A stretch of DNA of 64,000 nt from an uncultured Candidatus Saccharibacteria bacterium (GTDB taxonomy: Bacteria; Patescibacteriota; Minisyncoccia; Phycocordibacterales; UBA5272). How positions within the stretch are numbered: position 1 is the stretch's first letter; each line of letters begins with the position of its first letter. This document shows positions 608 to 52,190 of the stretch, one piece after another. A program made the translations under genes and the position numbers. Where the stretch lies: the NCBI GenBank assembly GCA_964510805.1, contig CAZEDG010000001.1, positions 48,227 through 112,226 on the forward strand. Direction: 5' to 3'. The notes under the pieces were generated by a model. That model ran no database searches and was not told where the DNA came from. It saw only the letters and a list, made by a program, of their open reading frames with translations.

Positions 608-735
608 AATGAAGACTAGATGTTGGACGTTAGACTTTAGATATTAGAAAATACAGAAAACACAAAGAACGAAGCCCTCAGCTTTGCTCTAACTAATAAC
701 CAATTACGAATTACGAGTGGTATACTATCTTTACT

Positions 736-2315: not shown

Positions 2316-2362
2316 GGAATCGTTATTCGTAATTAGTTATTCGTAATTCGTGTAAAACAAGG

Positions 2363-2690: not shown

Positions 2691-2813
2691 ATTGGGTCTC
2701 CAAGTGGAAAAACAGCTTTTATGATACTACAATATCTAGCAAAGTAAGTCAATTTTTGGTTATGTATTTCTCTAACCTCTAACGTCTAATATCTAAAATC
2801 TAGATATGCTATA

Positions 2814-3563: not shown

Positions 3564-3607
3564 TTATATTGTGTAAATCATGCATATTGCTAAATAAATG
3601 CTAAAAT

Positions 3608-4663
3608 GTGCCTATGATTAAGCGACTTACGAAGCATCTCTCGAATGATATTGGAATTGATCTTGGAACTGCTAATACACTCGTGTATCTTCGTGGAAGA
3701 GGAATTGTGATTAATGAGCCTTCTGTGGTTGCGGTGAATGCTAAGACTAATCGTGTTGTTGCTGTTGGTATCGAAGCGAAGAACATGATGGGAAGAACTC
3801 CGTCGCATATTCGTATTGTACGACCTCTTGTTGATGGTGTGATTTCTGATTATGAAGTAACGGAAGAGATGCTTAGTTATCTTATCAATAAAGCCAATGA
3901 GATTGATCGTAAGCCATTTCGTCCTCGTGTTGTCATCGGTGTACCGGTCGGAATCACCAATGTAGAGATGCGTGCTGTCTATGACGCTGCTAAGTCAGCA
4001 GGAGCAAGTAGTATCTTTATTGTAGAAGAACCGATGTCTGCAGCGATCGGTGTACACATGCCAATTCATGAACCAGTTGGAAGTATGATTGTTGATATCG
4101 GAGGAGGGACTACTGATATTGCTGTGATTGCGCTCTCAGGTATTGTACGAGCGAAAAGTCTTAAGGTTGCAGGAGATAAGCTTACAGAAGACATCATCTC
4201 GTATATGCGTGACGAGTTCAAGATGCTTATCGGAGAAAAAACAGGTGAGCATATCAAAATGACAATAGGGTCTGCACTTCCTGACGAAAACACTCAAGAG
4301 TTAAGCGTAAAAGGCCGTGATCTTGTAACAGGACTTCCACGAGAAGCAATTATTACTGACGTCGATGTACGAGAAGCGATGTATTCTTCTGTTGCGTCAC
4401 TTGTGGATGCGATTCGTGAAGTACTTGAGACTACTCCACCTGAAGTACTCTCTGATATTATGCATAAAGGTATCACTCTTGCAGGAGGAGGTGCGCTTAT
4501 TAGGAATTTACCTAACCTGCTCGAGATGCAACTCAAAGTTCCAGTTACTGTCGCTGATGATCCTCTCACTGCAGTTGCTCGTGGTACAGGAATTATTCTC
4601 GAACATCTTGATCGCTACAAGGATGTACTTATAGAAAACACCGATGACATATCATTTAGGTAA
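3608..4663 (+). CDS. mreB: rod shape-determining protein MreB
   Basis: IGIDLGTANT, DIGGGTTD; actin-like ATPase. ATG at 3614 is an alternative start. Confidence 0.9.
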   Translation: MPMIKRLTKHLSNDIGIDLGTANTLVYLRGRGIVINEPSVVAVNAKTNRVVAVGIEAKNMMGRTPSHIRIVRPLVDGVISDYEVTEEMLSYLINKANEIDRKPFRPRVVIGVPVGITNVEMRAVYDAAKSAGASSIFIVEEPMSAAIGVHMPIHEPVGSMIVDIGGGTTDIAVIALSGIVRAKSLKVAGDKLTEDIISYMRDEFKMLIGEKTGEHIKMTIGSALPDENTQELSVKGRDLVTGLPREAIITDVDVREAMYSSVASLVDAIREVLETTPPEVLSDIMHKGITLAGGGALIRNLPNLLEMQLKVPVTVADDPLTAVARGTGIILEHLDRYKDVLIENTDDISFR

Positions 4664-8318: not shown

Positions 8319-8379
8319 GAAAGACGACAGAATACTGACTAGATTTTAGAGATTAGACTTTAGGTATTAGTTGGGCACA

Positions 8380-8420
8380 GAATACAAAGAGCGACGCCGT
8401 AGGCGTCGCTCTTTGTATTC
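8380..8420 (+). terminator. rho-independent terminator, conserved hairpin family
   Basis: 19-bp perfect stem gaatacaaagagcgacgcc / ggcgtcgctctttgtattc, loop gta, T-rich tail. Confidence 0.7.
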
Positions 8421-8601
8421 TTAGTTATGTTTTTGCTTTTTGTTTTCATTCTTCATTCCTCCCTCTTTTCCTAATATCTAAAGTCTAATATCTACTATCT
8501 AGTCTTGTGTCGACTAACTCCCCACAATTTGTTATGATGGCTGTATGAATGTATTATAGTGGTGACTAATTACGAATAACTAATAACGAATAACTATCCC
8601 T

Positions 8602-10059
8602 ATGGCATCCCTCGAAGAACTTAAGCAATCTCGCATAAAAAAATTAGAAGCGCTTAAAGAGCGTGGGTATGTACCGTATCCAAGCAAGGCCAAGACAACT
8701 CACACCCTCAAAGAGCTTACTCATTCTTTTGCTTCACTTGAAAGTTCTCACGAAGTTGTTACTGTAGCAGGTCGTGTCATGTCATCACGTGGGCAAGGCG
8801 CTCTTGTTTTCTTTGATCTCTACGATGGTACCGCAAGACTTCAGTCAGTAATTAAGCTTCCAGAGTCAGGGGAAGTTGCTCACGCTTTTTATAATGAATT
8901 TGTTGATATCGGTGATTTTGTTTCTGTGACAGGGACAGCTTTTGTCACCCGTTCAGGTCAACCAAGTATTCTTGTGTCAGAGGTTTCTATGCTTTCTAAG
9001 TCACTTCTTCCTCTTCCTGATAAGTATCACGGGATTCAAGATGAAGAGCTTCGTATGCGTGAGAGATATCTTGATATCCTTACTAACGGAGAGCTTCGTG
9101 ATCTTTTTGAAAAGAAGGCTAAGTTTTGGAATGTGGTGAGAACTTTTCTTGGTGAACGAGGATTTCTTGAAGTTGAGACGCCAACTATCGAAATTACAAC
9201 AGGAGGCGCAGAAGCAAGACCTTTCAAAACATATCACAATGATTTTGATCTTAACGTGTTTATGCGTATTTCGATTGGTGAACTTTGGCAAAAACGCCTC
9301 ATGTCTGCAGGATTTCCAAGAACATTTGAGATAGGGCGAGCATACCGTAATGAAGGTTCTTCACCGGAACATGTACAAGAATTTACTAACTGTGAATTCT
9401 ATATGGCGTATGCTAATTATGAGGATGGTATGAAACTTGTTGAGGAGTTGTATCGAAGAATTGCACAAGAGGTGTTCGGTACTACCATCTTTACGACACG
9501 TGGGCATACTTTTGACCTGTCAGAGGAATGGAGACGTGTTGACTATAGGGAAGAGATTCTTAAGCAGACAGGTATCGATATCATGAAAGCAACAGATGAA
9601 GAGATTGTTACTAAACTTCAATCACTGCATGTAAAGTATGACGGCACGAATCGCGAGAGACTTACGGATACACTTTGGAAATATTGCCGTAAGCATATTG
9701 CTGGACCTGCTTTTCTTATTAACCATCCGCTTCTTGTTGCTCCGCTTGCAAAAGCAAATGAAGACGGTGTTACTGCACAAATATTCCAGCCAATCTTAGC
9801 AGGAAGCGAAATTGGAAAGGGGTATAGTGAGTTAAATGATCCAATTGATCAACGTGAGCGCTTCGATAAACAGCAAGAACTACTTGCCTCCGGTGATGAA
9901 GAAGCTATGATGGCGGATGATTCTTTTGTTGAAATGCTCGAGCATGGTATGCCTCCTACATGTGGATTTGGTTTTGGTGAACGATTATTTGCTTTTCTTG
10001 TAGATAAACCAATTCGTGAAGTGCATATGTTCCCACTTGTAAAACCGAAAGGAGAATGA
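8602..10059 (+). CDS. lysS: lysyl-tRNA synthetase, class II
   Basis: Class II aaRS motifs; N-terminal OB anticodon-binding domain. Confidence 0.9.
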   Translation: MASLEELKQSRIKKLEALKERGYVPYPSKAKTTHTLKELTHSFASLESSHEVVTVAGRVMSSRGQGALVFFDLYDGTARLQSVIKLPESGEVAHAFYNEFVDIGDFVSVTGTAFVTRSGQPSILVSEVSMLSKSLLPLPDKYHGIQDEELRMRERYLDILTNGELRDLFEKKAKFWNVVRTFLGERGFLEVETPTIEITTGGAEARPFKTYHNDFDLNVFMRISIGELWQKRLMSAGFPRTFEIGRAYRNEGSSPEHVQEFTNCEFYMAYANYEDGMKLVEELYRRIAQEVFGTTIFTTRGHTFDLSEEWRRVDYREEILKQTGIDIMKATDEEIVTKLQSLHVKYDGTNRERLTDTLWKYCRKHIAGPAFLINHPLLVAPLAKANEDGVTAQIFQPILAGSEIGKGYSELNDPIDQRERFDKQQELLASGDEEAMMADDSFVEMLEHGMPPTCGFGFGERLFAFLVDKPIREVHMFPLVKPKGE

Positions 10060-10126
10060 AGAGTGAAGAGTGAAGTTAATACATAAATCCTAAATTAAAG
10101 ATAACAGATTACAGATAGAAGTACAT

Positions 10127-10155
10127 AAAGAGCGACACCGTAGGTGTCGCTCTTT
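10127..10155 (+). terminator. rho-independent terminator, same hairpin family with a compensatory base-pair change
   Basis: aaagagcgacacc-gta-ggtgtcgctcttt. Confidence 0.6.
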
Positions 10156-10294
10156 GTATTTACAACCTCACTCCTCATGCTTCTTGCCTCATTCTCTCCA
10201 CTATCCACACTTTTCTTTCTCTTTTTACTACAAAGTGGGGTATAATGGGTTCAAGTGGGGGGAAGTGGGAGATTTTCCACCACTTACGACCGTT

Positions 10295-16570: not shown

Positions 16571-16695
16571 AAAATTCCTTTTTGTAAGAGGTGAAAGAAC
16601 TTAAGTATTACATCCCTATTTTCTTTATTGTCAAGGATTTGAAAAAAATAACATGATTCCCTCTATGTCTATCTCATGGTATAATTTCAAGTACT

Positions 16696-17367
16696 ATGAA
16701 AAAAATGTCACAATTCTTTAGAACCCCACAAGGGAAGTTCTTGGGTGGTATTGCTATAATTATTATTGCATTGTTTGGGTATTATTTTGCTTCTGATGGA
16801 TCAAAGAGTGCTCCTGTAGATGTGCCAGTTGTGAGTGTTGAAGATCATCTTCGTGGCGCTAAGGATGCGCCTCTTACACTTGTTGAATTCGGTGACTTCC
16901 AGTGTCCTGCATGTGGTGCGTATGAGTCTATTGTGCGTCAAGTTCTTGCTGATAATACAGGAAAGGTAAAGATTGTCTTCAAACATTTTCCTCTTACTTC
17001 GATTCACCGTAATGCACTTCTTAGCGCTAAGGCATCAGAAGCTGCATCGCTTCAGGGTAAGTTCTGGGAAATGCATGACATGCTCTATGATAAGCAAAGT
17101 GAATGGGGAGAGTCTCTCATGGCTCGTGATCTTATTCTTAATTATGCAACAACACTTCGTCTTGATCTTACTAAGTTCAAAGCTGATCTTGAGAATAAAG
17201 CAATAGAAGAAAAGATTCTTGCACAGCTACGAGAAGGAACACGTCTTGGTGTACAAGGAACTCCTACTTTTTATTTAAATGGAGTCAAGCTTGATCCTAG
17301 TGATACTGCGGGTGTAGAAACCTTCAATAAGACAATTAAGTCCGCACTCGCTAAACCAATCGAGTAA
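16696..17367 (+). CDS. DsbA-family thiol:disulfide oxidoreductase, membrane-anchored
   Basis: CPAC active site, N-terminal TM, thioredoxin fold. Confidence 0.7.
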   Translation: MKKMSQFFRTPQGKFLGGIAIIIIALFGYYFASDGSKSAPVDVPVVSVEDHLRGAKDAPLTLVEFGDFQCPACGAYESIVRQVLADNTGKVKIVFKHFPLTSIHRNALLSAKASEAASLQGKFWEMHDMLYDKQSEWGESLMARDLILNYATTLRLDLTKFKADLENKAIEEKILAQLREGTRLGVQGTPTFYLNGVKLDPSDTAGVETFNKTIKSALAKPIE

Positions 17368-17720: not shown

Positions 17721-18284
17721 ATGAGAGACGAAGAAAAACTTACACATTTTTATAACGAACACAGACGCATGCCGTCGTACGAAGAGATGAAAGAGCTCTT
17801 CGATGTCGCTTCCAAGAATACCGTATCCTACCGAGTAAACAAGCTTATCGAAGAAGGGTTTCTGGTTAAGGAAGACGGCAAGCTCTTCTTAGCGGAGATT
17901 GGCACAGTGCTTCGATTGGGGACTGTACAAGCTGGATTTCCTACTCAAGCAGACGAAGATGTTGCGACAGAACTTCTCTCGCTTGATGACTTCCTGGTTG
18001 ATCGAAAAGGTTCAACATACATGCTCGAAGTTGTCGGAGAGTCTATGATAGAAGCAGGTATCTTAGAAGGGGATCTCGTTCTTGTAGAAAAAGGCAGAAC
18101 TGCAAGAAAGGGAGATATCGTGCTTGCCCTTGTCGATCATGAGTATACGCTTAAGTATCTCGATCAAGAAAAAGGTAAACCAGTACTTATTCCCGCCAAT
18201 AAAAAGTTCAAAAAAATCTACCCCAATCCAAACACACTCAAGATAGAAGCAGTACTCAAAGCAGTTATTAGAAAGTATCGTTAA
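17721..18284 (+). CDS. lexA: LexA repressor (S24 peptidase)
   Basis: AG cleavage site in VQAGFP; GESM catalytic Ser; Lys dyad region. Confidence 0.8.
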   Translation: MRDEEKLTHFYNEHRRMPSYEEMKELFDVASKNTVSYRVNKLIEEGFLVKEDGKLFLAEIGTVLRLGTVQAGFPTQADEDVATELLSLDDFLVDRKGSTYMLEVVGESMIEAGILEGDLVLVEKGRTARKGDIVLALVDHEYTLKYLDQEKGKPVLIPANKKFKKIYPNPNTLKIEAVLKAVIRKYR

Positions 18285-18495
18285 CAAGAGCTATCTCTCT
18301 AAAAACACTATGAAATTTTTTAACTACACTATTGAAGTCAAGCAAGCAGATCAAGTGATTAAACAAAGCGAACTCATCCATATCAGTAGAATTGGAGACT
18401 TCGCAAAAAGAATCGCCTAAAAAAGTATTAACCATCAACCGCTTCCTTGTATTTACCAATTACTAATAACGAATTACTAATAACCATTAACTAAC

Positions 18496-18939
18496 ATGTC
18501 CTCCCGCGCAATCATTCGCCTCACTCTTCTTAATAGAGAAACCTTCACCCTTAACTATAGTCGTCGTATGTACGCAATCATAAGGAGGTACACTCCTTCT
18601 GCTCAAGAAGGTGGTAAGAATGAGTGCTTTGCAGAGCTTACCGGTCTTAGAACATTTTTCAAGATGACGTACCAAGAAATTGCTAAGAAGATAGCAGGTG
18701 ATATTAAGCGAGAGATCGGCCATGAATGCACGCTAACGGTTACTTCTCCTACACGATACGATTCGCTACAAAGGAAAGACACCAAGAAAAGGAGTATTAG
18801 CACCTACTCAGAAATTAATACTCTTTTTGCTGGCAAAAAAGTATCTAGTATACAAAAGCGAGCACTTGCAGAAGTAACGACAGCACTTAAGAAGCGTCGG
18901 GTAAGGCTTACTGTTCCTTTTATCGGTAAGGTTAAGTAA
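18496..18939 (+). CDS. hypothetical basic protein; start uncertain
   Basis: ORF only; internal Met at 18568 and 18666 are alternative starts. Confidence 0.25.
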   Translation: MSSRAIIRLTLLNRETFTLNYSRRMYAIIRRYTPSAQEGGKNECFAELTGLRTFFKMTYQEIAKKIAGDIKREIGHECTLTVTSPTRYDSLQRKDTKKRSISTYSEINTLFAGKKVSSIQKRALAEVTTALKKRRVRLTVPFIGKVK

Positions 18940-21123: not shown

Positions 21124-21261
21124 TCGAGGTATGAGCACGGGAAAGGCATTAACATCTCTCCCGTGTTTTATTTTTTTATACTCAAATTACTTTTTATGGT
21201 ATGATGTCTCGTACCTGTATCTCTATCTATTAACCATTAACTATAAACTATTAACCACAGT

Positions 21262-22383: not shown

Positions 22384-22480
22384 TTTGAAGGTCTTGATGT
22401 AAGTGTGCTACACTCTATGGTGGCTGGTCCTCGTATATGAAAAGAAGAGGATTAGCGTAAGGAAGCGCAGTGAAAGCCTC

Positions 22481-22530
22481 AAGCAGGTACCAGACCTCTC
22501 GGTCGGTGCCTGCTTTTTTCTTTTGTTTTG
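22481..22530 (+). terminator. rho-independent terminator after ychF
   Basis: 11-bp stem aagcaggtacc/ggtgcctgctt (one G-U pair) followed by TTTTTTCTTTTG. Confidence 0.5.
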
Positions 22531-22683
22531 TGTGAGTGTTTTATAAGTAACTGTGGATAACTCTTGAGGAAAATTTGCGTAAAGATGTATAGACATGCTA
22601 GTATTTCTGTTAGACGTTCTTTTGCAAGCGATTGCAGTTTTTCGTAAGCGATTGACGTCTGCGGTAGACAACAGGAGTAAAGC

Positions 22684-22797
22684 ATGAACAACTTCGGCCA
22701 CTCCATGATCGGCAACGCCGGCTACATCGACACCGGCCAAAGTGGCTTCGCCACCACGACCGACATCAACGCGACGATCAACGGCGCCAACAACTGA
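22684..22797 (+). CDS. GC-rich 37-aa ORF with strong C3 codon bias (MNNFGHSMIGNAGYIDTGQSGFATTTDINATINGANN)
   Basis: AGGAG SD 8 nt upstream, its own terminator at 22865-22900, about 60% GC against about 38% surroundings. Confidence 0.3.
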   Translation: MNNFGHSMIGNAGYIDTGQSGFATTTDINATINGANN

Positions 22798-27544: not shown

Positions 27545-27590
27545 ATAGATGAGATAGATGGTAGATTTTAGACGTTAGATATTAGAAAAG
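27541..27590 (+). repeat. seven tandem TAGNNNN heptads (TTAG-type stop repeat)
   Basis: atagata gatgaga tagatgg tagattt tagacgt tagatat tagaaaa, immediately after the alaS stop. Confidence 0.7.
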
Positions 27591-27594
27591 AAAA

Positions 27595-27623
27595 AAGGCG
27601 CGACCGCAGGTCGCGCCTTTTTT
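27595..27623 (+). terminator. bidirectional rho-independent terminator
   Basis: aggcgcgacc-gca-ggtcgcgcct, A-run upstream and T-run downstream. Confidence 0.7.
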
Positions 27624-30334: not shown

Positions 30335-30452
30335 ATAAAAATAGACCCTAGAAATTATGGTATTTTTTAATACCTAAGATCTAACATCTATTGTCTAGTC
30401 CCGCAGATTTGCATTATTTATTAAGGTGTAGTATAATTTAACCCACATTTCT

Positions 30453-34000: not shown

Positions 34001-34408
34001 ATGTCAGTAGAAACAAAAAATCGTTATATTGAAGCAGTTGGTCGTCGTAAGACTGCGGTTGCTCGTGTACGTATCACACCTTCAACAAAAGCTTCTTTTC
34101 TTATCAATGAAAAAGATGTAAAGGATTATTTCCCTACACATGAGCTTCAGACTATCTCACAAGAAGCTATCTCTAAGTCAGAGATTGGTGAGAAGTTCAC
34201 TGTTACTGTTCATGTAAATGGTGGAGGTATCCATGCGCAAGCAGAAGCGATTCGTCACGGTCTTGCAAGAACTCTTGTTCTTCGTGATGAACAAGTGAAG
34301 AACGCTCTTAAGAAGCTTGGCTTCCTTAAGCGTGACCCTCGTCAGGTTGAACGTAAGAAGTTCGGTCTCAAGAAGGCTCGTAAGTCTCCAACCTGGTCAA
34401 AACGATAG
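34001..34408 (+). CDS. rpsI: 30S ribosomal protein S9
   Basis: Ends with the conserved ...KKARKSPTWSKR. Confidence 0.9.
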   Translation: MSVETKNRYIEAVGRRKTAVARVRITPSTKASFLINEKDVKDYFPTHELQTISQEAISKSEIGEKFTVTVHVNGGGIHAQAEAIRHGLARTLVLRDEQVKNALKKLGFLKRDPRQVERKKFGLKKARKSPTWSKR

Positions 34409-34530
34409 CAAAACTATCCCATCTACTTTGTCGAAACCCCGATTTTGTCGGTCGTCGTACTACCAAGTACGACTTCCTCCAAAATCGGGGTTTCTTCGCG
34501 TATACGGGCAGTTTTGTATCGTTTTGTGTA
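34397..34530 (+). mobile_element. ~130-nt MITE-like element overlapping the last rpsI codons
   Basis: Terminal inverted repeats caaaacgatagcaaaac / gttttgtatcgttttg around a long nested hairpin (gaaaccccgattttg...caaaatcggggtttc). Absent from the downstream duplicate copy. Confidence 0.35.
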
Positions 34531-34613
34531 AGCGTTAAGAGTTTCGCTTTACTTATATTTTCAAAAACACTTATCATTTTACGGTTAAGTGGTTTTGTTA
34601 TATATTTAAATAT

Positions 34614-36074
34614 ATGAAAAAATCTTTTTCTGTTTCATTAATCTTGTTTGTAATGTTATTTGCTTTAGTGACTATTGTTTATATTGTAAATAAAAATAAC
34701 ATTAGAGAACTCTGGGCTGATACCACGAAAGGATTGGTAGGGGCTAAAAAAATACAAGCATCAAGTTCTGCTGAAAGTAGTTCTATTTCTACTGCTGTAG
34801 AAATAGAAAACCCTGAATTGAGGACTGATTTAGTGCTAATGAACCAAATAACAGTTAATGCTAAAATAGAAAACCTTGAAGAAGCAAGTGATGCCGCAAA
34901 AGCATATTTAGGTACAATTTTATTGCTGTCTTCTGGGGATATTGCTTATATAGTTAAAGCTAATCATAAAAGCTCATTATTTTTAAATAATGAAAAGCTG
35001 AAAGAAGAAGGCGTTTCTTTTGTGAAAGAAATAGCAAAAAATTTAGTATATCTCGTTACTGATTTTAAAAATGATCAGGAGTTTTTATTTTTTGGAAGAA
35101 ATTGGGTAGTAGTGGCACCAACAGGACTTTTCACTATCTCTGACGTGCAAGAAATAGATGGTGATATTTCCTATGTTTTTAATAGTAAAAATTTTCAACA
35201 AAAAATCCTTTTTTATAAAGGAAAGAAAATTATAGAAGCCCCATATATAAAAAATGTTAAAAAAACAAGTGGCGGTTTCTCATATATAACTTCTGAAAGC
35301 AGAAAAATCGGAGATACCTTGTTTTATAATGATCAAAAGGTTCTCTCTGCTCATGAAATTCTAAGTTATTTAGAAGTTGGAGATAAACTTGCTTATGTTA
35401 CTTTTGGTTATCTCGACAAGGAACATACTCCAAGTGAAGGGTTTTTTGCTAGTGATTACACAACGAAAGAAACTCTTTTTTATGATGGTAAAAAAATTAT
35501 TACAGATGATTCTATAGAGATATATAACATCTCTAACAAGTTGGCTTATGTGGTAAGTACTAAATATGGTAAAAAAAATCTTTTTTATAATAATAAAAAA
35601 ATAGTAACTGCAGATAATATTACTGATATTAAACCAGTCGGAAATAAGATATCTTATGTTATAAGTGATTATAACGCTGACAAGAAGAAGCTTTTTGTTG
35701 GAGATGATCTTATTGTTACAAAAAATAATATAAATTATATAGATTATATTAATGTTAAAGAAATTAATGGTAAAATCCTTTATAGTGTTCGAGATAATTT
35801 GACAGAAGATATTGTAACTTTTTATGACTCAGAAATGATTGGATCAAATATTGATTTCATGAAAATAATTTCAAGTAATATTGATAACGGACTTTGTTAT
35901 ATTATTTTTGATAAAACCACTCTGAAAAATAGCCTTATGTGTAATAAAAAAATAATAACAGAAAATGTAAGTGATTTTAGGGTGAGTGATATCTCTTCTT
36001 CTACATTTTTTATTTTAAAAACAGAAGAAACAGCAAGCTCTACAATTTTATCAGTTTATAGATTAACTTTATAA
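34614..36074 (+). CDS. membrane-anchored tandem-repeat (beta-propeller-like) protein, very AT-rich
   Basis: N-terminal TM; about 8 repeats of roughly 40-45 aa with core K.LFY.GKKI.T...I....KL.YV; GC much lower than flanks. Confidence 0.5.
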   Translation: MKKSFSVSLILFVMLFALVTIVYIVNKNNIRELWADTTKGLVGAKKIQASSSAESSSISTAVEIENPELRTDLVLMNQITVNAKIENLEEASDAAKAYLGTILLLSSGDIAYIVKANHKSSLFLNNEKLKEEGVSFVKEIAKNLVYLVTDFKNDQEFLFFGRNWVVVAPTGLFTISDVQEIDGDISYVFNSKNFQQKILFYKGKKIIEAPYIKNVKKTSGGFSYITSESRKIGDTLFYNDQKVLSAHEILSYLEVGDKLAYVTFGYLDKEHTPSEGFFASDYTTKETLFYDGKKIITDDSIEIYNISNKLAYVVSTKYGKKNLFYNNKKIVTADNITDIKPVGNKISYVISDYNADKKKLFVGDDLIVTKNNINYIDYINVKEINGKILYSVRDNLTEDIVTFYDSEMIGSNIDFMKIISSNIDNGLCYIIFDKTTLKNSLMCNKKIITENVSDFRVSDISSSTFFILKTEETASSTILSVYRLTL

Positions 36075-36078
36075 AAAT

Positions 36079-36176
36079 CAGGCTCGTAAGTCTCCTACAT
36101 GGAGCAAGCGTTAAGATATCGCTTTACTTATATTTTCAAAAACACCTTGTACATGTAAGGTGTTTTTGGTTTTAAA
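36079..36176 (+). repeat. direct-repeat copy of the rpsI 3' end (ARKSPTWSKR-stop) plus the intact rpsI-type terminator
   Basis: Matches 34374-34396 plus 34531-34600, including coding remnant ggctcgtaagtctcctacatggagcaagcgttaa and terminator aaacacctt-gtacatgt-aaggtgttt. Confidence 0.6.
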
Positions 36177-36265
36177 TTTGACGAACTTACTTAAAAAGTG
36201 TAGTGTATTTACTACATCCTAGTACCTGGATGGGTTAATTGAGCGGATGCTCATAAGGAGTGGAA

Positions 36266-36790
36266 ATGTTTGCTTTCTTCAAGAAACCTTTTGAACCACA
36301 GAAGAGTCAGAATCAAGGAGATTATGTAGGAGATTTTGATAAATGGATTCAACGTAAGAATGCTGTTATAAAACGACTGCTAGAAGATTTTCCTTGGCTT
36401 TGGGCGGTTAATAACCATTATAACAGAGATGATGGTGACCGTATCAAGGTGAATCAGGACATGTCGGACCTTAAGTTGGTTCTTTCCCAAAATTCAGACA
36501 AGACAGGTTTTTTGCTTTGGTCTGTAGCAAGTCATTTTTGTGACAGTTTTAACGTCCTTGTCAAATGTCATGAACGTCAAGAAGGAAAGATCTGGTCTGA
36601 AGCGATCACTCAACAAAGTTACGGCCATAGAAATATTCTTTATTTGGTTTCTGTTGATTGGGGATCTTCTGGTCATGGAATAACTATTTTTCGGCATCCT
36701 GAAAAACAATGTTTGGATGAAGTTATCCAACAGGTTTGTGATCTTCATGGTGTCAACGCTAGACGATTGATATCTTCTGACTTTGTTTGA
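36266..36790 (+). CDS. hypothetical protein
   Basis: Strong AAGGAG SD 5 nt upstream, which is unusual in this window; terminator follows at 36803-36838. Confidence 0.35.
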   Translation: MFAFFKKPFEPQKSQNQGDYVGDFDKWIQRKNAVIKRLLEDFPWLWAVNNHYNRDDGDRIKVNQDMSDLKLVLSQNSDKTGFLLWSVASHFCDSFNVLVKCHERQEGKIWSEAITQQSYGHRNILYLVSVDWGSSGHGITIFRHPEKQCLDEVIQQVCDLHGVNARRLISSDFV

Positions 36791-36802
36791 TTTTTAAGAA
36801 TC

Positions 36803-37572: not shown

Positions 37573-37620
37573 ATTTTTTCTATTAACTATCAACCATTAA
37601 CTATTAACTGAATTTATATT

Positions 37621-41242: not shown

Positions 41243-41390
41243 GTTGCCATCTCTATTTGAAGTTTCAAGGGGGTTTTCTTTCTATTCTGTAGAAAATAGA
41301 AAGAATCTGAGATAACACTACAACAAAATACGTTACAGGTCAATTATTTTCTTGCCTCTTTTTGTAAACATGCTAGTATAGATACTATCT

Positions 41391-42482
41391 ATGTCAAAGA
41401 ATTATTATGATGTTTTGGGAGTTGGTAAAAGCGCTTCAAAAGAAGAAATTAAGAAGGCGTTTTATAAATTAGCAGCGAAATATCATCCAGACAAAAAAGG
41501 TGGAGATGAAGCTAAGTTCAAAGAGGTTAATGAAGCATATCAGACACTCTCTGATGATAAGAAGCGTAAGGAATACGATACCTACGGACAGACCTTTAAC
41601 GGAGCAGGAGGAAACGGAAACGGCTTCGGAGGGTTTGGGGGCTTCGGTGGATTTAATCAAGGAGACTTCAGCGATATGCAGTTCGATTTCGGTGATCTTG
41701 GCGATATCTTTGGTGATATGTTCGGAGGTGGTTTTAGCGGTGGATCTCGTCAGAAGAGAGGGAGAGATATCTCTCTTGAGATTGATGTGCCTTTTACTGA
41801 AGCAGTGTTTGGTACTGAGCGTACGGTAATGATTACAAAAGTTTCTACATGTGAAGTATGTGATGGTACAGGAGCAAAACATGGAAGCAAGAAAAAAACT
41901 TGTGCTACTTGTAACGGTCAAGGAAAGATGCACGATGTAAAGAAAACATTCATGGGTAATTTCCAGACAGTAAGGACTTGTACTACTTGTAACGGTGTCG
42001 GGCAAGTTCCTGAAGAGCGTTGTTCTACTTGTAAAGGTAACGGTGTCTACAACAAGCGTGAAGATGTGGTTATCTCAGTTCCTGCAGGTATTTCAAATGG
42101 TGAAATGATTAGAATGACAGGAATGGGAGAGGCTATTGCTCAAGGTGTCTCAGGAGATCTGTATGTAAAGGTAAACGTGATTTCTCATAAGCTTTGGAAA
42201 AGAGAAGGACATGATCTTGTTATCAATCACGAGATCAAGCTCACTGATGCGCTTCTTGGTGTAAGTCATACTATTGATGGACTTGATGGTCCTATTACTA
42301 TCGACGTGGCACCAGGTGCTCAGCCAGGTGAGACATTACGTGTAAAAGGTCGAGGTGTCCCTCATGTTCATGAAAAAGGAAGAAGAGGGGATGCGCTTGT
42401 GAAGCTTCATATTGCGATGCCTAAGAAACTTTCCAGAAAAGCAGAGAGCTACATCCAAGGTCTTCGTGAAGAAGGACTATAG
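41391..42482 (+). CDS. dnaJ: molecular chaperone DnaJ
   Basis: J-domain with HPD, G/F-rich region, four CxxCxGxG repeats. Confidence 0.9.
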
Positions 42483-45512: not shown

Positions 45513-46925
45513 ATGACTAGAATATATTGCAAGGACCTTTCTTCACATGTTGAACAAGAGGTGACTGTACAGGGTTGGATCGATGTGCGTCGTGATCAGG
45601 GGAAGATGATCTTCCTTGATCTTCGTGATGTAACAGGGAAGGTGCAAGCAGTTGCTCTACCTTTTCACACAGAAGCAAAAGAAGTTGCTGAGAAGGTTCG
45701 CCCTGAGTGGGTTGTTGAGGTTAAGGCTAAGGTTAATAAGCGTCCAGAGAAGAATGTCAAAGCAGATACCCTTAATGGTGACATTGAGCTTGAAATTCTT
45801 ACTATCACAATTCTTAATGAGGCAACCACCCCAGCATTTGATATCTCAACTAGTGGTTATGAGGTAAACGAAGAAGTAAGACTTGAGAAAAAGTATCTTG
45901 ATCTTCGTCGAAAGAGACTTCAAGATAATGTGATTATGCGACATAAGGTAATTAAGATGATTCGCGATGAGCTTGATAAGCAGAACTTTTTTGAAATAGA
46001 GACACCACTTCTTACTAACCCGACACCCGAAGGATCACGGTCATATCTTGTGCCTTCGCGTATTTGGCAGGGGAATTTTTATGCACTTCCACAATCACCA
46101 CAACAGTATAAGCAACTTCTCATGTCTTCTGGATTTGAACGATACTTCCAGATTGCAAAATGTATGCGTGATGAGGATACTCGTGGTGATCGTCAACCAG
46201 AGTTCACTCAGATGGACCTTGAGATGAGTTTTGTGAAGCGCGAAGATGTAATGAGGGTGAATGAAGAATTGCTTATTACAATCGTACAAAAACTTTTCCC
46301 TAAGAAGCGTATTCAACAAGTGCCGTTCCCTGTGTTTACCTATAAAGAGGTGATGGAGAAGTATGGATCTGATAAGCCTGATATTCGTAATGATAAGAAT
46401 GATCCTGATCTTCTTGCATTCTGTTGGGTTGTTGATTTTCCGGCATTCGAAAAGACAGGAGAAGATAACGTGGACGGGACAGGAGAGTGGACCTTTACTC
46501 ATAACCCATTCACTGGTGTCAAAGATGAATGGAAGCAGTCGCTTCTTGAAAAAAAGAATATTGCTGATATCGTATCAACACAGTATGATGTTGCACTCAA
46601 TGGGTATGAGATTGGTGGCGGTGGAATACGTCTTCATGATCCTGCAATGCTTCGCAAAGTGTTCGAGATTATGGGGTATGATGATGAACGCATCGAAAGA
46701 AACTTCGGGCACATGCTAACCGCGCTTGGCTCAGGCACTCCTCCACACGGAGGTATTGCGTGGGGGCTTGATCGCTTCCTTATGATACTTCTTAATGAGC
46801 CTAATATTCGCGAAGTAATGGCATTTCCGAAGACAGGTGAGGGTAAGGACCTCCTCATGCAGGCTCCGGCCCCTGCAAGCCAAAAAACCATGCGTGAGCT
46901 TGGTATAGAAGTGAAGGGGAAGTAG
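45513..46925 (+). CDS. aspS: aspartyl-tRNA synthetase
   Basis: Class II motifs (FFEIETP, RDED, GGGIRLHD); short bacterial/archaeal-like form. Confidence 0.9.
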   Translation: MTRIYCKDLSSHVEQEVTVQGWIDVRRDQGKMIFLDLRDVTGKVQAVALPFHTEAKEVAEKVRPEWVVEVKAKVNKRPEKNVKADTLNGDIELEILTITILNEATTPAFDISTSGYEVNEEVRLEKKYLDLRRKRLQDNVIMRHKVIKMIRDELDKQNFFEIETPLLTNPTPEGSRSYLVPSRIWQGNFYALPQSPQQYKQLLMSSGFERYFQIAKCMRDEDTRGDRQPEFTQMDLEMSFVKREDVMRVNEELLITIVQKLFPKKRIQQVPFPVFTYKEVMEKYGSDKPDIRNDKNDPDLLAFCWVVDFPAFEKTGEDNVDGTGEWTFTHNPFTGVKDEWKQSLLEKKNIADIVSTQYDVALNGYEIGGGGIRLHDPAMLRKVFEIMGYDDERIERNFGHMLTALGSGTPPHGGIAWGLDRFLMILLNEPNIREVMAFPKTGEGKDLLMQAPAPASQKTMRELGIEVKGK

Positions 46926-46929
46926 GTTT

Positions 46930-46959
46930 AGGGAGTGAGGAATGAAGAATGAGGAATGA
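46930..46959 (+). repeat. (GAATGAG)n heptad repeat (TGA-type stop repeat)
   Basis: gagtgag gaatgaa gaatgag gaatgag directly after the aspS stop. Confidence 0.7.
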
Positions 46960-46968
46960 GGTTGCAAG

Positions 46969-46997
46969 AGAAGAGCGACGCCGTAGGCGTCGCTCTT
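46969..46997 (+). terminator. rho-independent terminator, conserved hairpin family
   Basis: gaagagcgacgcc-gta-ggcgtcgctcttc. Confidence 0.65.
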
Positions 46998-47444: not shown

Positions 47445-47459
47445 TGGTAGTATAGAAAT

Positions 47460-48602
47460 ATGTCCATACGTAAGCATAGTAGTATTTTTGTGCTCATTTT
47501 TCTTTCACTAAGCACTTTTTCTTATGGTGCCTCTTTTGAAAAAGGTGCGTGGATTCCTTATTGGAAAAAGACTGAAGGTGCGAGTACAACGCTTCCTAAT
47601 CTTGATGTGCTTACACAAATAAGCCCCTTTGCATATGAATTACAAAACGATGGCACAATTAAGAACGCTCTTAAGATAGAAGAAGAGCCTTGGACTTCTC
47701 TCATCGCTGAAGCAAAGAAAAAGAAAGTAAAAGTCTATCCAAGCATTCTTTCATACCCAAACTCTTCTTCCGAGAAAAAAGCGGTATATACACTTCTCTC
47801 TAATAAAAAGAAACGACAAGCCCACGTAAAAGCAATTGTTGCACTTGTGAAGAAAAATAAATTTGATGGCATTGATATTGATTACGAAGCTAAGATTGCT
47901 GAAAGTAAGCCTTATTTTTCGGCGTTTCTTACAGAGCTTTCGACAGCGCTTCATAAAGAAAAGAAGCAACTTATTTGTACTATTGAGCCACGCACCCCGC
48001 CAGATAGTAGGTATGCCACCACTTCCAAAGAAGTGCTTTCAAAGGTTGAATATGCAAATGATTACAAAGTAATTGGTAAGGCATGTGACCAGGTGAGACT
48101 TATGGCGTATGATCAGATGACTGATGATGCGAAGCTTACTAATCAGTATAAAGATACAGGTACTCTCTATGCGCCGGTTGCTGATATCGAATGGGTAAAA
48201 AAAATTATTACGGTAGCGCTTTGGGATATCCCTGCAAAAAAAATTATCATTGGTGTACCAACCTACGGATACAAGTATGAGATCAAGACTTCCACGTCAA
48301 CAGGAGGGTATCTCTATAAAAAGATTGGTTCCATGAATTATAATTACTCAGTTGAGCTTGCTAAGAGTACAGGACAATCTCCTACACGTAATCAAGCAGG
48401 CGAACTTCATTTTGTCTATTCAACATCAACCGGAGTAAATGGTGAAGCGCTTGGTTCATATAAGCAATATCTTGTCTGGTATTCTGATGCGCAAGCAATT
48501 CTTGATAAGATAAAACTCGCAAAACTGTATAAGTTAGGCGGTGTTGTTGTTTTTAAGATAGATGGAGGAAATGACCCAAGAGTGTTCGAAGTTTTGAGAT
48601 AG
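47460..48602 (+). CDS. secreted glycoside hydrolase family 18 (chitinase-like) protein
   Basis: Signal peptide; DGIDIDYE catalytic motif (DxxDxDxE). Confidence 0.7.
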   Translation: MSIRKHSSIFVLIFLSLSTFSYGASFEKGAWIPYWKKTEGASTTLPNLDVLTQISPFAYELQNDGTIKNALKIEEEPWTSLIAEAKKKKVKVYPSILSYPNSSSEKKAVYTLLSNKKKRQAHVKAIVALVKKNKFDGIDIDYEAKIAESKPYFSAFLTELSTALHKEKKQLICTIEPRTPPDSRYATTSKEVLSKVEYANDYKVIGKACDQVRLMAYDQMTDDAKLTNQYKDTGTLYAPVADIEWVKKIITVALWDIPAKKIIIGVPTYGYKYEIKTSTSTGGYLYKKIGSMNYNYSVELAKSTGQSPTRNQAGELHFVYSTSTGVNGEALGSYKQYLVWYSDAQAILDKIKLAKLYKLGGVVVFKIDGGNDPRVFEVLR

Positions 48603-51086: not shown

Positions 51087-51116
51087 GCCATTCTTTTATG
51101 CTATAATAGCGATTGT

Positions 51117-52190
51117 ATGTCTATGCTTTCTCTTGACCCAATTAAAGTACTTTTTCCTGCAATTATTTCGTTTCTTTTTGGTATTCTTGTGGCACCAACA
51201 GTGATACGTGTGCTTGAGCATTTTAAGGTTTGGAAAAAGAAAAGTGTCAGTAAGACAATCGATGGTAAGGAAGCGTCTATTACTGCAACGCTTCATAATG
51301 ATGAGGAGCGACATCTTCTCCGTATGGGGGGTATTGTTGTATGGCTTTCTGTTTTTGTAACAGCAATTGTCGTGTGGCTTCTCTCTAAGTTACATCCGAC
51401 GCTTCTTACTGAGAAACTTGATTTTATTTCTCGTAAGCAGACATGGCTACCACTTATGGGTATGCTAGTAGGAGCATGTGTTGGTGGTCTTGATGATCTT
51501 CTTGTGTCTCGTGTATTCAAACAAGTAGGGAGTTACGTAGGAGGAGGTCTTTCCTTTCCTGTGCGACTCTTCGCGGTTTCTTCTATGGGGCTTTTTGCAG
51601 GGCTTTGGTTTTATACTAAGCTAGGAGTATCCTCGGTGTATGTTCCTTTTTATGGAGACTTACATTTAAGCGGGCTTATTTTTATCCTCTTTTTTGTTAT
51701 TGTTACTGTTGCGCTTTTTTCAACAAGTGTTATTGACGGTATTGACGGTCTTTCTGGTGGTATTTTTTCTGCTATCTTTTCTGCATATGGTGCGATCGCG
51801 TTTACACAACATCAGATTGATATTTCAGCGCTGTGTTTTGTCATCGCGGGAGCAATTATGGCATTCTTGTGGTTTAATATTCCACCAGCTTCTTTTATGA
51901 TGGGTGAGACAGGGATTATGGCAATACTGCTTGCACTTTCTGTCATTGTGTTTCTCACTAATGCGGTACTGTACTTACTTGTTATCGCTTTTCCTCTCAT
52001 TGTTACAACGTCCTCAGTAATACTTCAACTCTTTTGGAAGAAATTTTTTAAGAAGAAACTATTTTTGGTTGCACCACTTCATCACCACTTTGAGGCTAAG
52101 GGTTGGCCTAGATATCGCATTGTAATGAGATATTGGGTTGTGTCATATATGTGTGCTATTCTTGGTGTCGTCTTAACGCTTATAAGCTAA
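51117..52190 (+). CDS. mraY: phospho-N-acetylmuramoyl-pentapeptide transferase MraY
   Basis: GGLDDLL, IDGIDGLSGG, PLHHHFE motifs. Confidence 0.8.
   Translation: MSMLSLDPIKVLFPAIISFLFGILVAPTVIRVLEHFKVWKKKSVSKTIDGKEASITATLHNDEERHLLRMGGIVVWLSVFVTAIVVWLLSKLHPTLLTEKLDFISRKQTWLPLMGMLVGACVGGLDDLLVSRVFKQVGSYVGGGLSFPVRLFAVSSMGLFAGLWFYTKLGVSSVYVPFYGDLHLSGLIFILFFVIVTVALFSTSVIDGIDGLSGGIFSAIFSAYGAIAFTQHQIDISALCFVIAGAIMAFLWFNIPPASFMMGETGIMAILLALSVIVFLTNAVLYLLVIAFPLIVTTSSVILQLFWKKFFKKKLFLVAPLHHHFEAKGWPRYRIVMRYWVVSYMCAILGVVLTLIS

Follow-up and report, generated by a model that had tools for sequence, protein, structure and literature searches.

Contiguous tandem arrays of 7-nucleotide (nt) units were found at gene ends in the window, the 64-kb stretch of bacterial DNA analyzed in this study (64,000 nt, contig CAZEDG010000001.1), and their occurrence was real and beyond chance. 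Copies with little G on the sense strand ended 3-17 nt before ATG codons or sat just 5' of promoters; reverse-complement copies, with little C, began 0-10 nt past stop codons, ahead of a terminator hairpin, and 16 related loci followed the same orientation rules. The interpretation that we favor, if tentatively, is that the arrays are heptad microsatellites born by slippage and kept in the orientation that would give an unstructured 5' leader, devoid of start codons, for translation initiation independent of a Shine-Dalgarno (SD) sequence.

An initial annotation of the window had described AT-rich heptad arrays in front of start codons, together with one inverted copy. Six arrays with the unit AWTWACN (read in one register as A-W-T/A-W-A-C-N) were located where it had placed them (695-715, 8568-8595, 18451-18492, 21229-21256, 37582-37609, and 2321-2348), the last being the inverted copy with four minus-strand units, and the additional 14-nt level of repetition that it proposed was seen as a super-period in the array at 8568-8595. 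The arrays did precede ATG codons, but the gap, given as 7-12 nt, was measured as 3-17 nt for six arrays of the window, and the array of open reading frame (ORF) 736, for which the same position had been claimed, sat 5' of an extended -10 box (TGGTATACT, 718-726) and not obviously in a 5' untranslated region (UTR). Furthermore, the annotation covered part of the pattern only: further unit families and mirror arrays on the 3' side of genes were present (marked as new in Table 1).

Chance levels for AWTWACN runs were taken from fifty dinucleotide-preserving shuffles of the window. At the strict threshold, runs of at least three units numbered five in the window and 0.0 in the shuffles, and runs of two units one and 1.5, respectively. 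The single hexamers ATTAAC, AATAAC, and AATTAC were not over-represented; their 7-nt tandem arrangement alone was. An autocorrelation scan without any assumed unit detected, at a strict threshold, arrays of period 7 only and, at a looser threshold, 15 arrays of period 7 against 0.75 in shuffles, with 0-5 for periods 5, 6, 8, 9, and 10; the result of Tandem Repeats Finder agreed. All of these 15 arrays were intergenic, the intergenic share of the window being 11.3% (P about 7e-15). Several unit families were represented in the window (AWTWACN, TCTAANN, and TTCAYTC), as contiguous tandems of 3-6 copies in which the units alternated, matched each other at 80-94%, and formed 14-nt super-periods.

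The strand polarity was examined in the window together with loci of relatives (designated by L numbers below). In 974 kb of such DNA, 46 arrays of period 7 were found versus 0-8 for each other period from 4 to 12. Among 70 non-redundant arrays (with ORFs of at least 80 amino acids (aa) considered), an ATG lay within 30 nt in 30 cases on the G-poor strand versus 6 on the G-rich strand, and an ORF stop lay within 30 nt upstream in 19 cases on the G-rich strand versus 10 on the G-poor strand (Fisher P = 9e-5). When 73 arrays in 344 kb (the window and the 16 related loci) were sorted by position, 19 formed a leader class (5.6% G and 23% C), 19 lay 5' of a -10 box at leaderless distance (11.5% G), and 17 followed stop codons (5.9% C and 21.6% G). 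General UTRs were far milder in composition (14% G upstream and 16% C downstream), and this background skew was much too weak to be the source of the polarity. A strict mirror polarity of this kind was not found described in the heptad-repeat literature that was compared. Each unit brought one stop triplet, which was TAA in leader arrays and either TAG or TGA in trailer arrays, and stops closed all three frames in 10 of the 16 leaders and 12 of the 14 trailers; leader peptides were thereby ruled out, as most arrays carried three-frame stops. At least six arrays in relatives filled short same-strand intercistronic spacers without room for a promoter. In addition to AWTWACN and TCTAANN, the units CCTAACN, ACCTAAA, ACAACAC, and AAGCTAA were found among the window and relatives, and such diversity within one genome and among relatives points to an effect of composition or structure rather than of one specific AU-rich motif.

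The best named homologues of DnaK in the window (85% identity) belonged to Candidatus Parcubacteria, Nomurabacteria, Pacebacteria, and Paceibacterota, and many ORFs in the window had no Pfam match. A scan of canonical -35/-10 promoters gave no enrichment (38 found versus 47 expected), and promoters were assigned instead by a scan for extended -10 boxes (TGnTAnnnT). Such a box ended 6-10 nt before the ATG in many genes, e.g., 2823, 3614, 16696, 41391, 47460, 51117, and 60176(-); promoter/start spans of this leaderless type were 2807-2825, 3599-3616, 16677-16698, 41371-41393, 47445-47462, 51099-51119, and 61304-61283(-). In 276 genes of close relatives, -10-like hexamers peaked 6-10 nt from the ATG, and SD-like 4-mers peaked at 5-8 nt but in about 6% of the genes only. 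In 284 upstream regions of the close set, the base directly before the start codon (position -1) was a pyrimidine in 86% of cases and T in 65%. Of 340 genes, 40% had a TAnnnT spaced as in leaderless genes and 9% had an SD-like motif; the remaining 51% had neither, and in this group G made up 12% of positions -20 to -1. Genes of this lineage thus look mostly leaderless or provided with G-poor leaders. Consistent with the initial annotation, the leader arrays contained no GGAG, GAGG, or AGGA. The same annotation had confined clear SDs to the ORFs at 22684 (AGGAG) and 36266 (AAGGAG); both are present, but further ones preceded 19126(-) (AAGGAGG), 25133 (AAGGAG), and 61398 (TAGGAG). These few strong and correctly spaced SDs suggest that the anti-SD still works in the lineage. 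The 3' end of 16S rRNA was found neither in the window nor in loci L001-L202 nor in short overlapping contigs; neither the window nor the loci yielded an rpsA gene, and no cold-shock-domain protein, as a candidate binder, was detected by motif in the window and loci L121-L206. Scans of the window with Rfam (gathering thresholds) and for tRNAs gave no match. The anti-SD motif is reported for 48% of Parcubacteria only, along with a frequent loss of bS21 and a bS1 of 3-4 domains in the candidate phyla radiation (CPR) (PMC9297842).

The starts of longest ORFs were probably wrong for five genes (2814/2823, 3608/3614, 36260/36266, 10154/10295, and 25556/25625); from promoter position, SD position, or orthologue alignment, they were revised to ATG 2823 (SpoU), 3614 (MreB), 36266, 10295 (MraZ), and 25625 (AlaS).

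Table 1. Heptad arrays at gene ends in the window.
Feature	Position	Strand	Units and context	Initial annotation
lysS leader array	8560..8599	+	AATTACG AATAACT AATAACG AATAACT at 8568-8595; nearly entire putative 5' leader; lysS ATG 8602	described
ORF 18496 array	18450..18493	+	six AWTWACN units (18451-18492), ending 3 nt from ATG of ORF 18496-18939	described
ychF array	21222..21259	+	ATTAACC ATTAACT ATAAACT ATTAACC at 21229-21256; G-free; ends 3 nt before ychF ATG 21262	described
dnaK array	37574..37612	+	ATTAACT ATCAACC ATTAACT ATTAACT at 37582-37609; ends 9 nt before dnaK ATG 37621	described
ORF 736 array	687..720	+	AATAACC AATTACG AATTACG at 695-715; directly 5' of TGGTATACT; ORF 736-1611 encodes a PD-(D/E)XK nuclease	described
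ORF 2823 array	2767..2806	+	TCTAANN heptads abutting extended -10 box TGCTATAAT (2807-2815)	new
greA-lysS intergenic arrays	8429..8511	+	G-poor; TTCATTC type 8429-8461, TCTAANN type 8470-8511; between greA terminator and lysS promoter	new
infA-rpsM spacer array	30368..30399	+	weak, G-poor; CCTAAGA TCTAACA TCTATTG (TCTAANN type)	new
Inverted AWTWACN array	2317..2353	-	sense strand G/T-rich; begins 2 nt past stop of ORF 1611-2315; terminator hairpin 2356-2401 next	described
Reverse-complement TCTAANN array	617..666	-	sense strand G-rich; begins 10 nt past stop of ORF 77-607	new
greA trailer array	8339..8370	-	TAGATTT TAGAGAT TAGACTT TAGGTAT, reverse-complement TCTAANN type; greA stop 8318; hairpin 8379-8421 follows	new
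lysS trailer arrays	10041..10121	-	purine-rich, C-poor; GAGTGAA type 10041-10081, AGATAAC type 10094-10121; span and follow lysS stop 10059; hairpin 10130-10152 next	new
alaS trailer array	27552..27597	-	reverse-complement TCTAANN; begins 8 nt past alaS stop 27544	new
Class II aminoacyl-tRNA synthetase trailer array	46925..46968	-	GGAATGA/GAATGAG; 19 G, 1 C; begins at stop of ORF 45513-46925; hairpin 46973-46995 next	new

Upstream of the lysS array were TGTTATGAT (8530-8538) and a -10-like TATAGT (8555-8560); given these -10-like boxes, the array would begin at about +1 of a leader of ~35 nt. For ychF, an extended -10 box (TGGTATGAT, 21197-21205) lay 5' of the array, 56 nt from the ATG. The dnaK array occupied the 48-nt spacer between grpE and dnaK, and its final unit (within 37603-37611), read as TAACTGA, was the sole unit of that sequence. 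No obvious -10 box was found upstream of ORF 18496, which lies 212 nt 3' of a lexA/umuD-like gene. The RNA of 8560-8640 (lysS) had a minimum free energy (MFE) of -2.0 kcal/mol, and 198 of 200 shuffles folded at least as well, which was also the case for the dnaK leader; the ORF 18496 leader was predicted to be unstructured, and the MFE of the four leader RNAs (lysS, ORF 18496, ychF, and dnaK) ranged from -1.8 to -4.8 kcal/mol over 81-91 nt, with z-scores of +0.3 to +2.2. Arrays acting as promoters for leaderless starts of lysS, ORF 18496, and dnaK were considered and rejected, there being no TAnnnT hexamer 5-11 nt from the ATG. By contrast with arrays 3' of a -10 box, that of ORF 736 lies 5' of an extended -10 box located 9 nt before the ATG, and would therefore take the promoter spacer or -35 position. 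The array of ORF 2823, which abuts its extended -10 box, would take the same position, and ATG 2823 (SpoU methylase) is likely a leaderless start.

The product of ORF 18496-18939 (147 aa) resembled the N-terminus of a Y-family polymerase. In the region 17721-18939, a LexA/UmuD-like gene is followed by this ORF with the N-terminal part only of the Y-family polymerase (IMS) domain, and relatives keep this short form (144-148 aa, 44-51% identity), which has the look of a genuine small protein and not of a pseudogene fragment.

Array-led and leaderless versions of the same genes were found when orthologues were compared. Across 80 loci with YchF relatives, ychF was mostly leaderless (TGcTAGAAT 6-10 nt before the ATG), and it was array-led in L133 and L126 (TAAC-type), with other heptad-like leaders in L131 and L139. 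The lysS gene was leaderless in L127, L135, and L162, and array-led in L132 with a different unit (NNAAACT); for alaS, eight relatives had the leaderless form, and an array preceded the gene in L133. For lysS, ychF, and alaS, most relatives thus have a leaderless version and others have arrays with different units, which makes the array an alternative to the leaderless architecture, and such switching between orthologues indicates that arrays turn over quickly; gain and loss were seen between orthologues at 75-80% protein identity. Arrays before dnaK were similar to that of the window in L132 and of the type CTAACGN in L328, and the orthologues of ORF 18496 (umuC-like) had AATTAC-type arrays in L124, L126, and L138. 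In L328, G-free heptads preceded the ATG of rpsM, rpsK, and rpsI inside a ribosomal-protein cluster (ACCTAAA, ACAACAC, and CCTAAC-type), and G-rich heptads followed infA and GH18, as they did YceG and asnS in L330. Altogether, [A/T]AC heptad leaders were found in 23 of 276 genes of close relatives. These comparisons point to independent origins of arrays, with differing units, and show that an array can take the place of a leaderless architecture.

The favored interpretation may be put as follows. Heptanucleotide microsatellites would arise by slippage and populate the intergenic DNA of the lineage, and near start codons only the orientation whose transcript lacks G would survive. The array would supply a 5' leader of 30-45 nt to a leadered or internal cistron unable to use the leaderless route; it would contain no ATG, GTG, or TTG, often with TAA in all three frames, and because it has almost no G, it could hardly fold. 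The ribosome would load on the open RNA and take the first AUG. It might load directly, with the aid of a short bS1, out of a standby site, or by sliding as a 70S particle, either following termination or starting at the 5' end. The effect would be set by composition and structure and not by a specific sequence. This proposal starts from properties that were observed: the non-randomness, position, orientation, composition, predicted lack of structure, and SD absence of the arrays, the operon-internal cases, and the evolutionary turnover. Transcription of the arrays is inferred, solely on the basis of -10 boxes and operon context (those of lysS and ychF are located 3' of -10 boxes, and that of dnaK is operon-internal), and a promotion of initiation by the arrays is a further inference. 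SD-less mRNAs depend on a local lack of structure (PMC3121790), unstructured 5' tails serve as ribosome standby sites (PMC5934652), and Bacteroidetes initiate without SD (PMC6847099). The AU-rich translation enhancer proposed in the initial annotation agrees with the position, lack of structure, and rare SDs, but is unproven, and in the form of a single specific AU-rich motif it is disfavored by the diversity of units.

Several points weigh against this interpretation. The place of the arrays in mRNA rests on -10-like motifs, and at least 19 of 73 arrays lie 5' of a -10 box at leaderless distance (including those of ORF 736, ORF 2823, and ORF 28298) and may fall outside the main transcript. 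The period of 7 is left unexplained by the model, as are the C-poor mirror arrays right past stop codons. Lack of structure and of start codons follows automatically from low G, and neither is therefore independent evidence; many leaders of the lineage are G-poor without repeats, so that the repeat itself may add nothing. Finally, among the matches listed, AWTWACN arrays are weakly enriched before starts in other phyla and in viral contigs.

The latter matches came from a search of 596 Gb, in which the exact pattern of four AWTWACN units occurred at at least 120 loci versus about one by chance (our own estimate). The hosts among the matches listed were filamentous cyanobacteria, Pyrinomonadaceae and other Acidobacteriota, Bacteroidota, Chloroflexota, Verrucomicrobiota, and one Saccharibacteria; these arrays were often long (some exceeding 15 copies), and frequently a complementary copy close by made them one arm of a local inverted repeat. 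The units AATTACG, AATAACC, ATTAACA, and ATTTACG formed arrays in many filamentous cyanobacteria, Bacteroidota, Acidobacteriota, and Chloroflexota. Among the matches listed for other phyla, a start was present within 45 nt downstream in 23 of 123 cases in forward versus 10 of 124 in reverse orientation (12% for random positions), and among those listed for viral contigs, with at least 120 further matches, in 31 of 122 versus 18 of 123. AWTWACN units are thus widespread heptanucleotide microsatellites, and their link with gene ends is strong in this lineage. Phage-like contigs L230, L254, L270, L274, and L288 had AATAACA or ATTAACA arrays placed directly between an extended -10 box (e.g., TGGTATAAT) and the ATG, in some cases followed by an SD; it appears that phages share this type of leader.

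Such a distribution would also be expected if the arrays were near-neutral microsatellites that accumulate where they are harmless, i.e., in intergenic DNA, the repeat being a mere spacer and selection doing no more than purging harmful orientations (G-rich copies that place start codons or SD-like runs ahead of an ATG, and C-rich copies past a stop, at some cost). This we regard as possible but rather doubtful. Heptanucleotide repeats are, according to Mrazek 2007 in the form cited in PMC4679880, the most abundant class of long simple sequence repeats in most prokaryotic genomes; the AWTWACN arrays of many phyla and viral contigs are mostly not beside starts, and the many unit families, the gain and loss between orthologues, and the common non-repetitive G-poor leaders would all be accommodated. 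On the other hand, imperfect and alternating units indicate that the arrays are not fresh slippage products, and yet their consensus is kept. No copy-number difference was found among 4-6 near-identical assemblies (99.9-100% identity; JGI and SRA, other samples). In the gene of ORF 28298 (129-131 aa), a block of 35-40 nt (TCCACTAnnAACTATnAAC...TATA(A/T)ACT) is kept and recognizable in seven relatives while the DNA 5' of it is unalignable, and the 40-nt array plus -10 block is identical in L123, L125, and L126. The mirrored extreme skew of leaders and trailers, compared with general UTRs, is likewise not what neutrality would lead one to expect.

The mirror arrays would find a place in a two-sided, composition-coded system of gene boundaries in Parcubacteria with weakened or lost SD/anti-SD pairing, which we consider unlikely: G-free arrays would be tracks for ribosome entry or scanning, and C-free mirrors would be the matching 3' signal, which might act, e.g., against reinitiation, in insulation, as a partner for pairing, or in antisense silencing. 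If this were true, start selection would be set by the strand composition of a repeat and not by a sequence motif.

The initial annotation had alternatively proposed promoter UP elements or operator arrays. At the level of DNA, the arrays could be UP-like, could substitute for the spacer or -35 of -10-only promoters, or could be operators of a DNA-binding regulator, and the position does fit 687-720, 2767-2806, 8470-8511, and the array before ORF 28298; 19 arrays abut a -10 box at leaderless distance, among them 687-720, 2767-2806, and the conserved block of ORF 28298, and with canonical -35 sequences not enriched (38 versus 47 expected), something else may support promoters. Heptamer repeats modulate reporters of the recO and recF promoters in Nostoc (10.1101/2022.06.06.494920), and TTTTGAT heptad repeats of the ctxAB promoter are reported to be bound by protein (10.1101/2021.05.14.444153). 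Nevertheless, this explanation is distinctly unlikely for the set as a whole: the arrays of lysS, ychF, ORF 18496, and dnaK lie 3' of a -10 box or inside an operon; a contiguous period of 7 bp is out of helical phase (10-11 bp), and there are no dyads; the many unrelated unit families would require many regulators in a genome of ~1 Mb; and neither the sense-strand depletion of G nor the mirror arrays past stop codons are predicted. The genes with arrays share no function, being mixed in role (aminoacyl-tRNA synthetases, chaperones, ribosomal proteins, a nuclease, and hypotheticals). Because umuC-like, dnaK, and clpB-like genes carry arrays, a LexA/SOS, HrcA-CIRCE, or CtsR-type regulon was considered, and was ruled out by the aminoacyl-tRNA synthetase and ribosomal-protein genes and by the 7-bp instead of 10-bp spacing; no CIRCE element was visible by eye 5' of grpE.

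Each unit family occurs in both orientations, G-poor at 5' ends and as the complement at 3' ends, and C-poor 3' UTR arrays might therefore pair in cis or trans with G-poor leader arrays of the same family, controlling translation or stability; a single-stranded trailer followed by a terminator hairpin is the layout of a 3'-UTR-derived small RNA, and the 3' arrays were indeed predicted to be single-stranded ahead of strong hairpins (z-scores of -4.1 to -5.6). The RNA of 2317-2353 was calculated to pair with the lysS leader at 31 of 37 positions (free energy of -33.5 kcal/mol) and with the ORF 18496 leader at -21.4 kcal/mol, versus about -9 for shuffled controls, and the arrays at 692-716 and 2320-2344, flanking one two-gene unit, are 88% complementary. 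In L328 (19535-19640, GH18-scpA) and L126 (19031-19140), a G-rich post-stop array is complementary to the C-rich array before the next gene, and each pair could fold into an imperfect hairpin spanning the intergenic region at length. We nevertheless hold control by pairing to be quite improbable, since complementarity within a family is automatic and needs no function, and since it occurs within the same transcript in only one of five cases in the window; several forward partners (8470-8511 and 2767-2806) sit 5' of promoters, and no trailer in the window is complementary to the leader of ychF or dnaK.

Rho utilization (rut) sites are marked by an excess of C over G and by an absence of structure, and the G-poor, C-containing strand is directed into the gene from both ends, a geometry that fits a rut-like site on untranslated RNA entering the gene, which would silence antisense transcription and couple transcription to translation. 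This is very improbable given the short length of the arrays (30-45 nt), the AC of AWTWACN units in place of the YC dimers preferred by Rho, and the many array-rich genomes in the scan that are cyanobacteria, which, to our knowledge, are generally without Rho. Phase variation, in which a change in copy number would switch the downstream gene, is scarcely credible with imperfect, alternating units, housekeeping targets (lysS, dnaK, ychF, and ribosomal proteins), and arrays identical, in a small sampling, among near-identical assemblies of different samples.

The closest precedent is the TAACTGA repeats of marine Beggiatoaceae, heptad leaders having been seen before in few other bacterial groups only. 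Of the 170 sets in the Orange Guaymas 'Maribeggiatoa' genome, 147 are directed toward a start codon; no more than about 10% of the repeat-bearing regions contain an SD, and S1, Csp, or CsrA-like binders were proposed (PMC4679880). Both systems consist of tandem 7-nt units (2-6 copies there; MacGregor 2015) that are nearly all intergenic and end a few nt from the start codon, with SDs mostly absent in between, downstream genes without a common function that include ribosomal proteins, no predicted RNA structure, three-frame stops in the forward orientation, and a TAAC core. In contrast to the one dominant heptamer there, with related heptamers rarely repeated, several unrelated families with only G depletion in common were found here; the host is not a gammaproteobacterium with 25% SD use but a Parcubacteria (CPR) lineage with mostly leaderless genes; and mirror arrays past stop codons are regular in this lineage, while a few TAACTGA sets point at stop codons. 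Multiple families, a leaderless background, and mirror trailers are thus new relative to that precedent, and by sequence analysis the arrays would be assigned to the TAACTGA type by layout but not as members by sequence.

Similarities were also found to other systems. The short tandemly repeated repetitive (STRR) and long simple sequence repeat (LSSR) arrays of cyanobacteria are likewise intergenic heptamer tandems near promoters and starts, longer than chance and scattered among phyla, with effects on reporters in Nostoc (10.1101/2022.06.06.494920); those of other phyla differ in being longer, often local inverted repeats, and weakly enriched before starts. A/U-rich S1-dependent enhancers and standby leaders (PMC5934652; PMC3858243) share a G-poor, single-stranded leader at the start that can replace or supplement an SD, the recurrent motifs UUAAC and AAUUAC, and a lack of structure, which was predicted here as well; they are, however, not 7-nt tandem arrays and were defined experimentally in Escherichia coli, usually with an SD. 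In Bacteroidetes (PMC6847099; PMC3155529), SDs are scarce throughout the lineage with few canonical ones persisting, and low structure and an A-rich, G-poor upstream sequence tune initiation, as for SD-less mRNAs (PMC3121790), but position-specific A residues (Kozak-like) act there instead of repeats, and leaderless genes are not the default. Heptad operators (TTTTGAT in ctxAB; Streptomyces antibiotic regulatory proteins, PMC5930380) are direct heptamers near promoters as well; they act on DNA 5' of or over the promoter, with one cognate sequence per regulator and, for the latter proteins, in helical phase (10-11 bp), whereas the units here are contiguous at 7 bp, varied in sequence, and often predicted to be transcribed. 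These arrays bear on how bacteria without SD pairing pick start codons on leadered and internal cistrons. For lysS, ychF, alaS, and dnaK, close relatives offer natural leaderless and heptad-leader versions with several units that can be compared directly. The mirror polarity suggests that the direction of expression shapes intergenic heptad repeats long known in cyanobacteria, Bacteroidota, and Beggiatoaceae, and even if the arrays were merely tolerated, starts in such genomes would be better called from -10 boxes and G-poor leaders than from SDs.

Leaders of the A/U-rich enhancer type also include the T7 gene 10 epsilon UUAACUUUA and the omega repeats of tobacco mosaic virus (ACAAUUAC). The CtsR operator consists of heptad direct repeats at helical phase (10-11 bp) near promoters of stress genes.

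On the stop side, the arrays at 10041-10081 and 46925-46968 are reverse complements of the TTCAYTC family, and that at 617-666 is 84-94% complementary to 2771-2800; the array at 8339-8370 fell under the automatic threshold and was picked by eye in the alignment. A terminator hairpin core, GAGCGACGCCGTAGGCGTCGCTC, occurred three times in the window (8389-8411, 10130-10152, and 46973-46995) versus 0 expected, and the two changes in the copy at 10130 both preserved pairing. G-rich heptads lay 5' of every copy, and C/T-rich heptads lay also 3' of those at 8389 and 10130. Similar hairpins were present in L123, L162, and L328, and this hairpin may be a terminator module resembling repetitive extragenic palindromic (REP) sequences or miniature inverted-repeat transposable elements (MITEs).

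Two adjacent ORFs for PD-(D/E)XK (Cas4-like) nucleases (77-607 and 736-1611) and a 234-aa orphan made up the region 77-2353. The pair 736-2315 is bracketed by the complementary arrays at 692-716 and 2320-2344 (88%) and by an outer pair at 617-641 and 2771-2795 (84%); a mobile element bounded by terminal inverted repeats and holding ORFs 736-2315 was considered but not supported, as other arrays are not so paired. In the mraZ leader (10225-10294), direct repeats GTGGGG / GTGGGA surround the -10 box GGTATAAT and are kept in L127, L135, and L162; in L132, a heptad array (ACGAATA/ACGACCA) takes the place of this block.

A low-GC island at 34400-36800 (GC of 0.32 versus 0.40) was missing from the syntenic L327 and L328 and is probably acquired DNA; it contained a 486-aa ORF (34614-36074) and the SD-led (AAGGAG) ORF 36266-36790, both without a Pfam match. 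At 22684-22797, a GC-rich ORF of 37 aa (MNNFGHSMIGNAGYIDTGQSGFATTTDINATINGANN) had the canonical SD AGGAG and a leader of ~80 nt from TGCTAGTAT (22596), and was also called in L121; it may encode a small secreted or modified peptide, and the antisense ORF 22408-22740 overlapping it is probably spurious.

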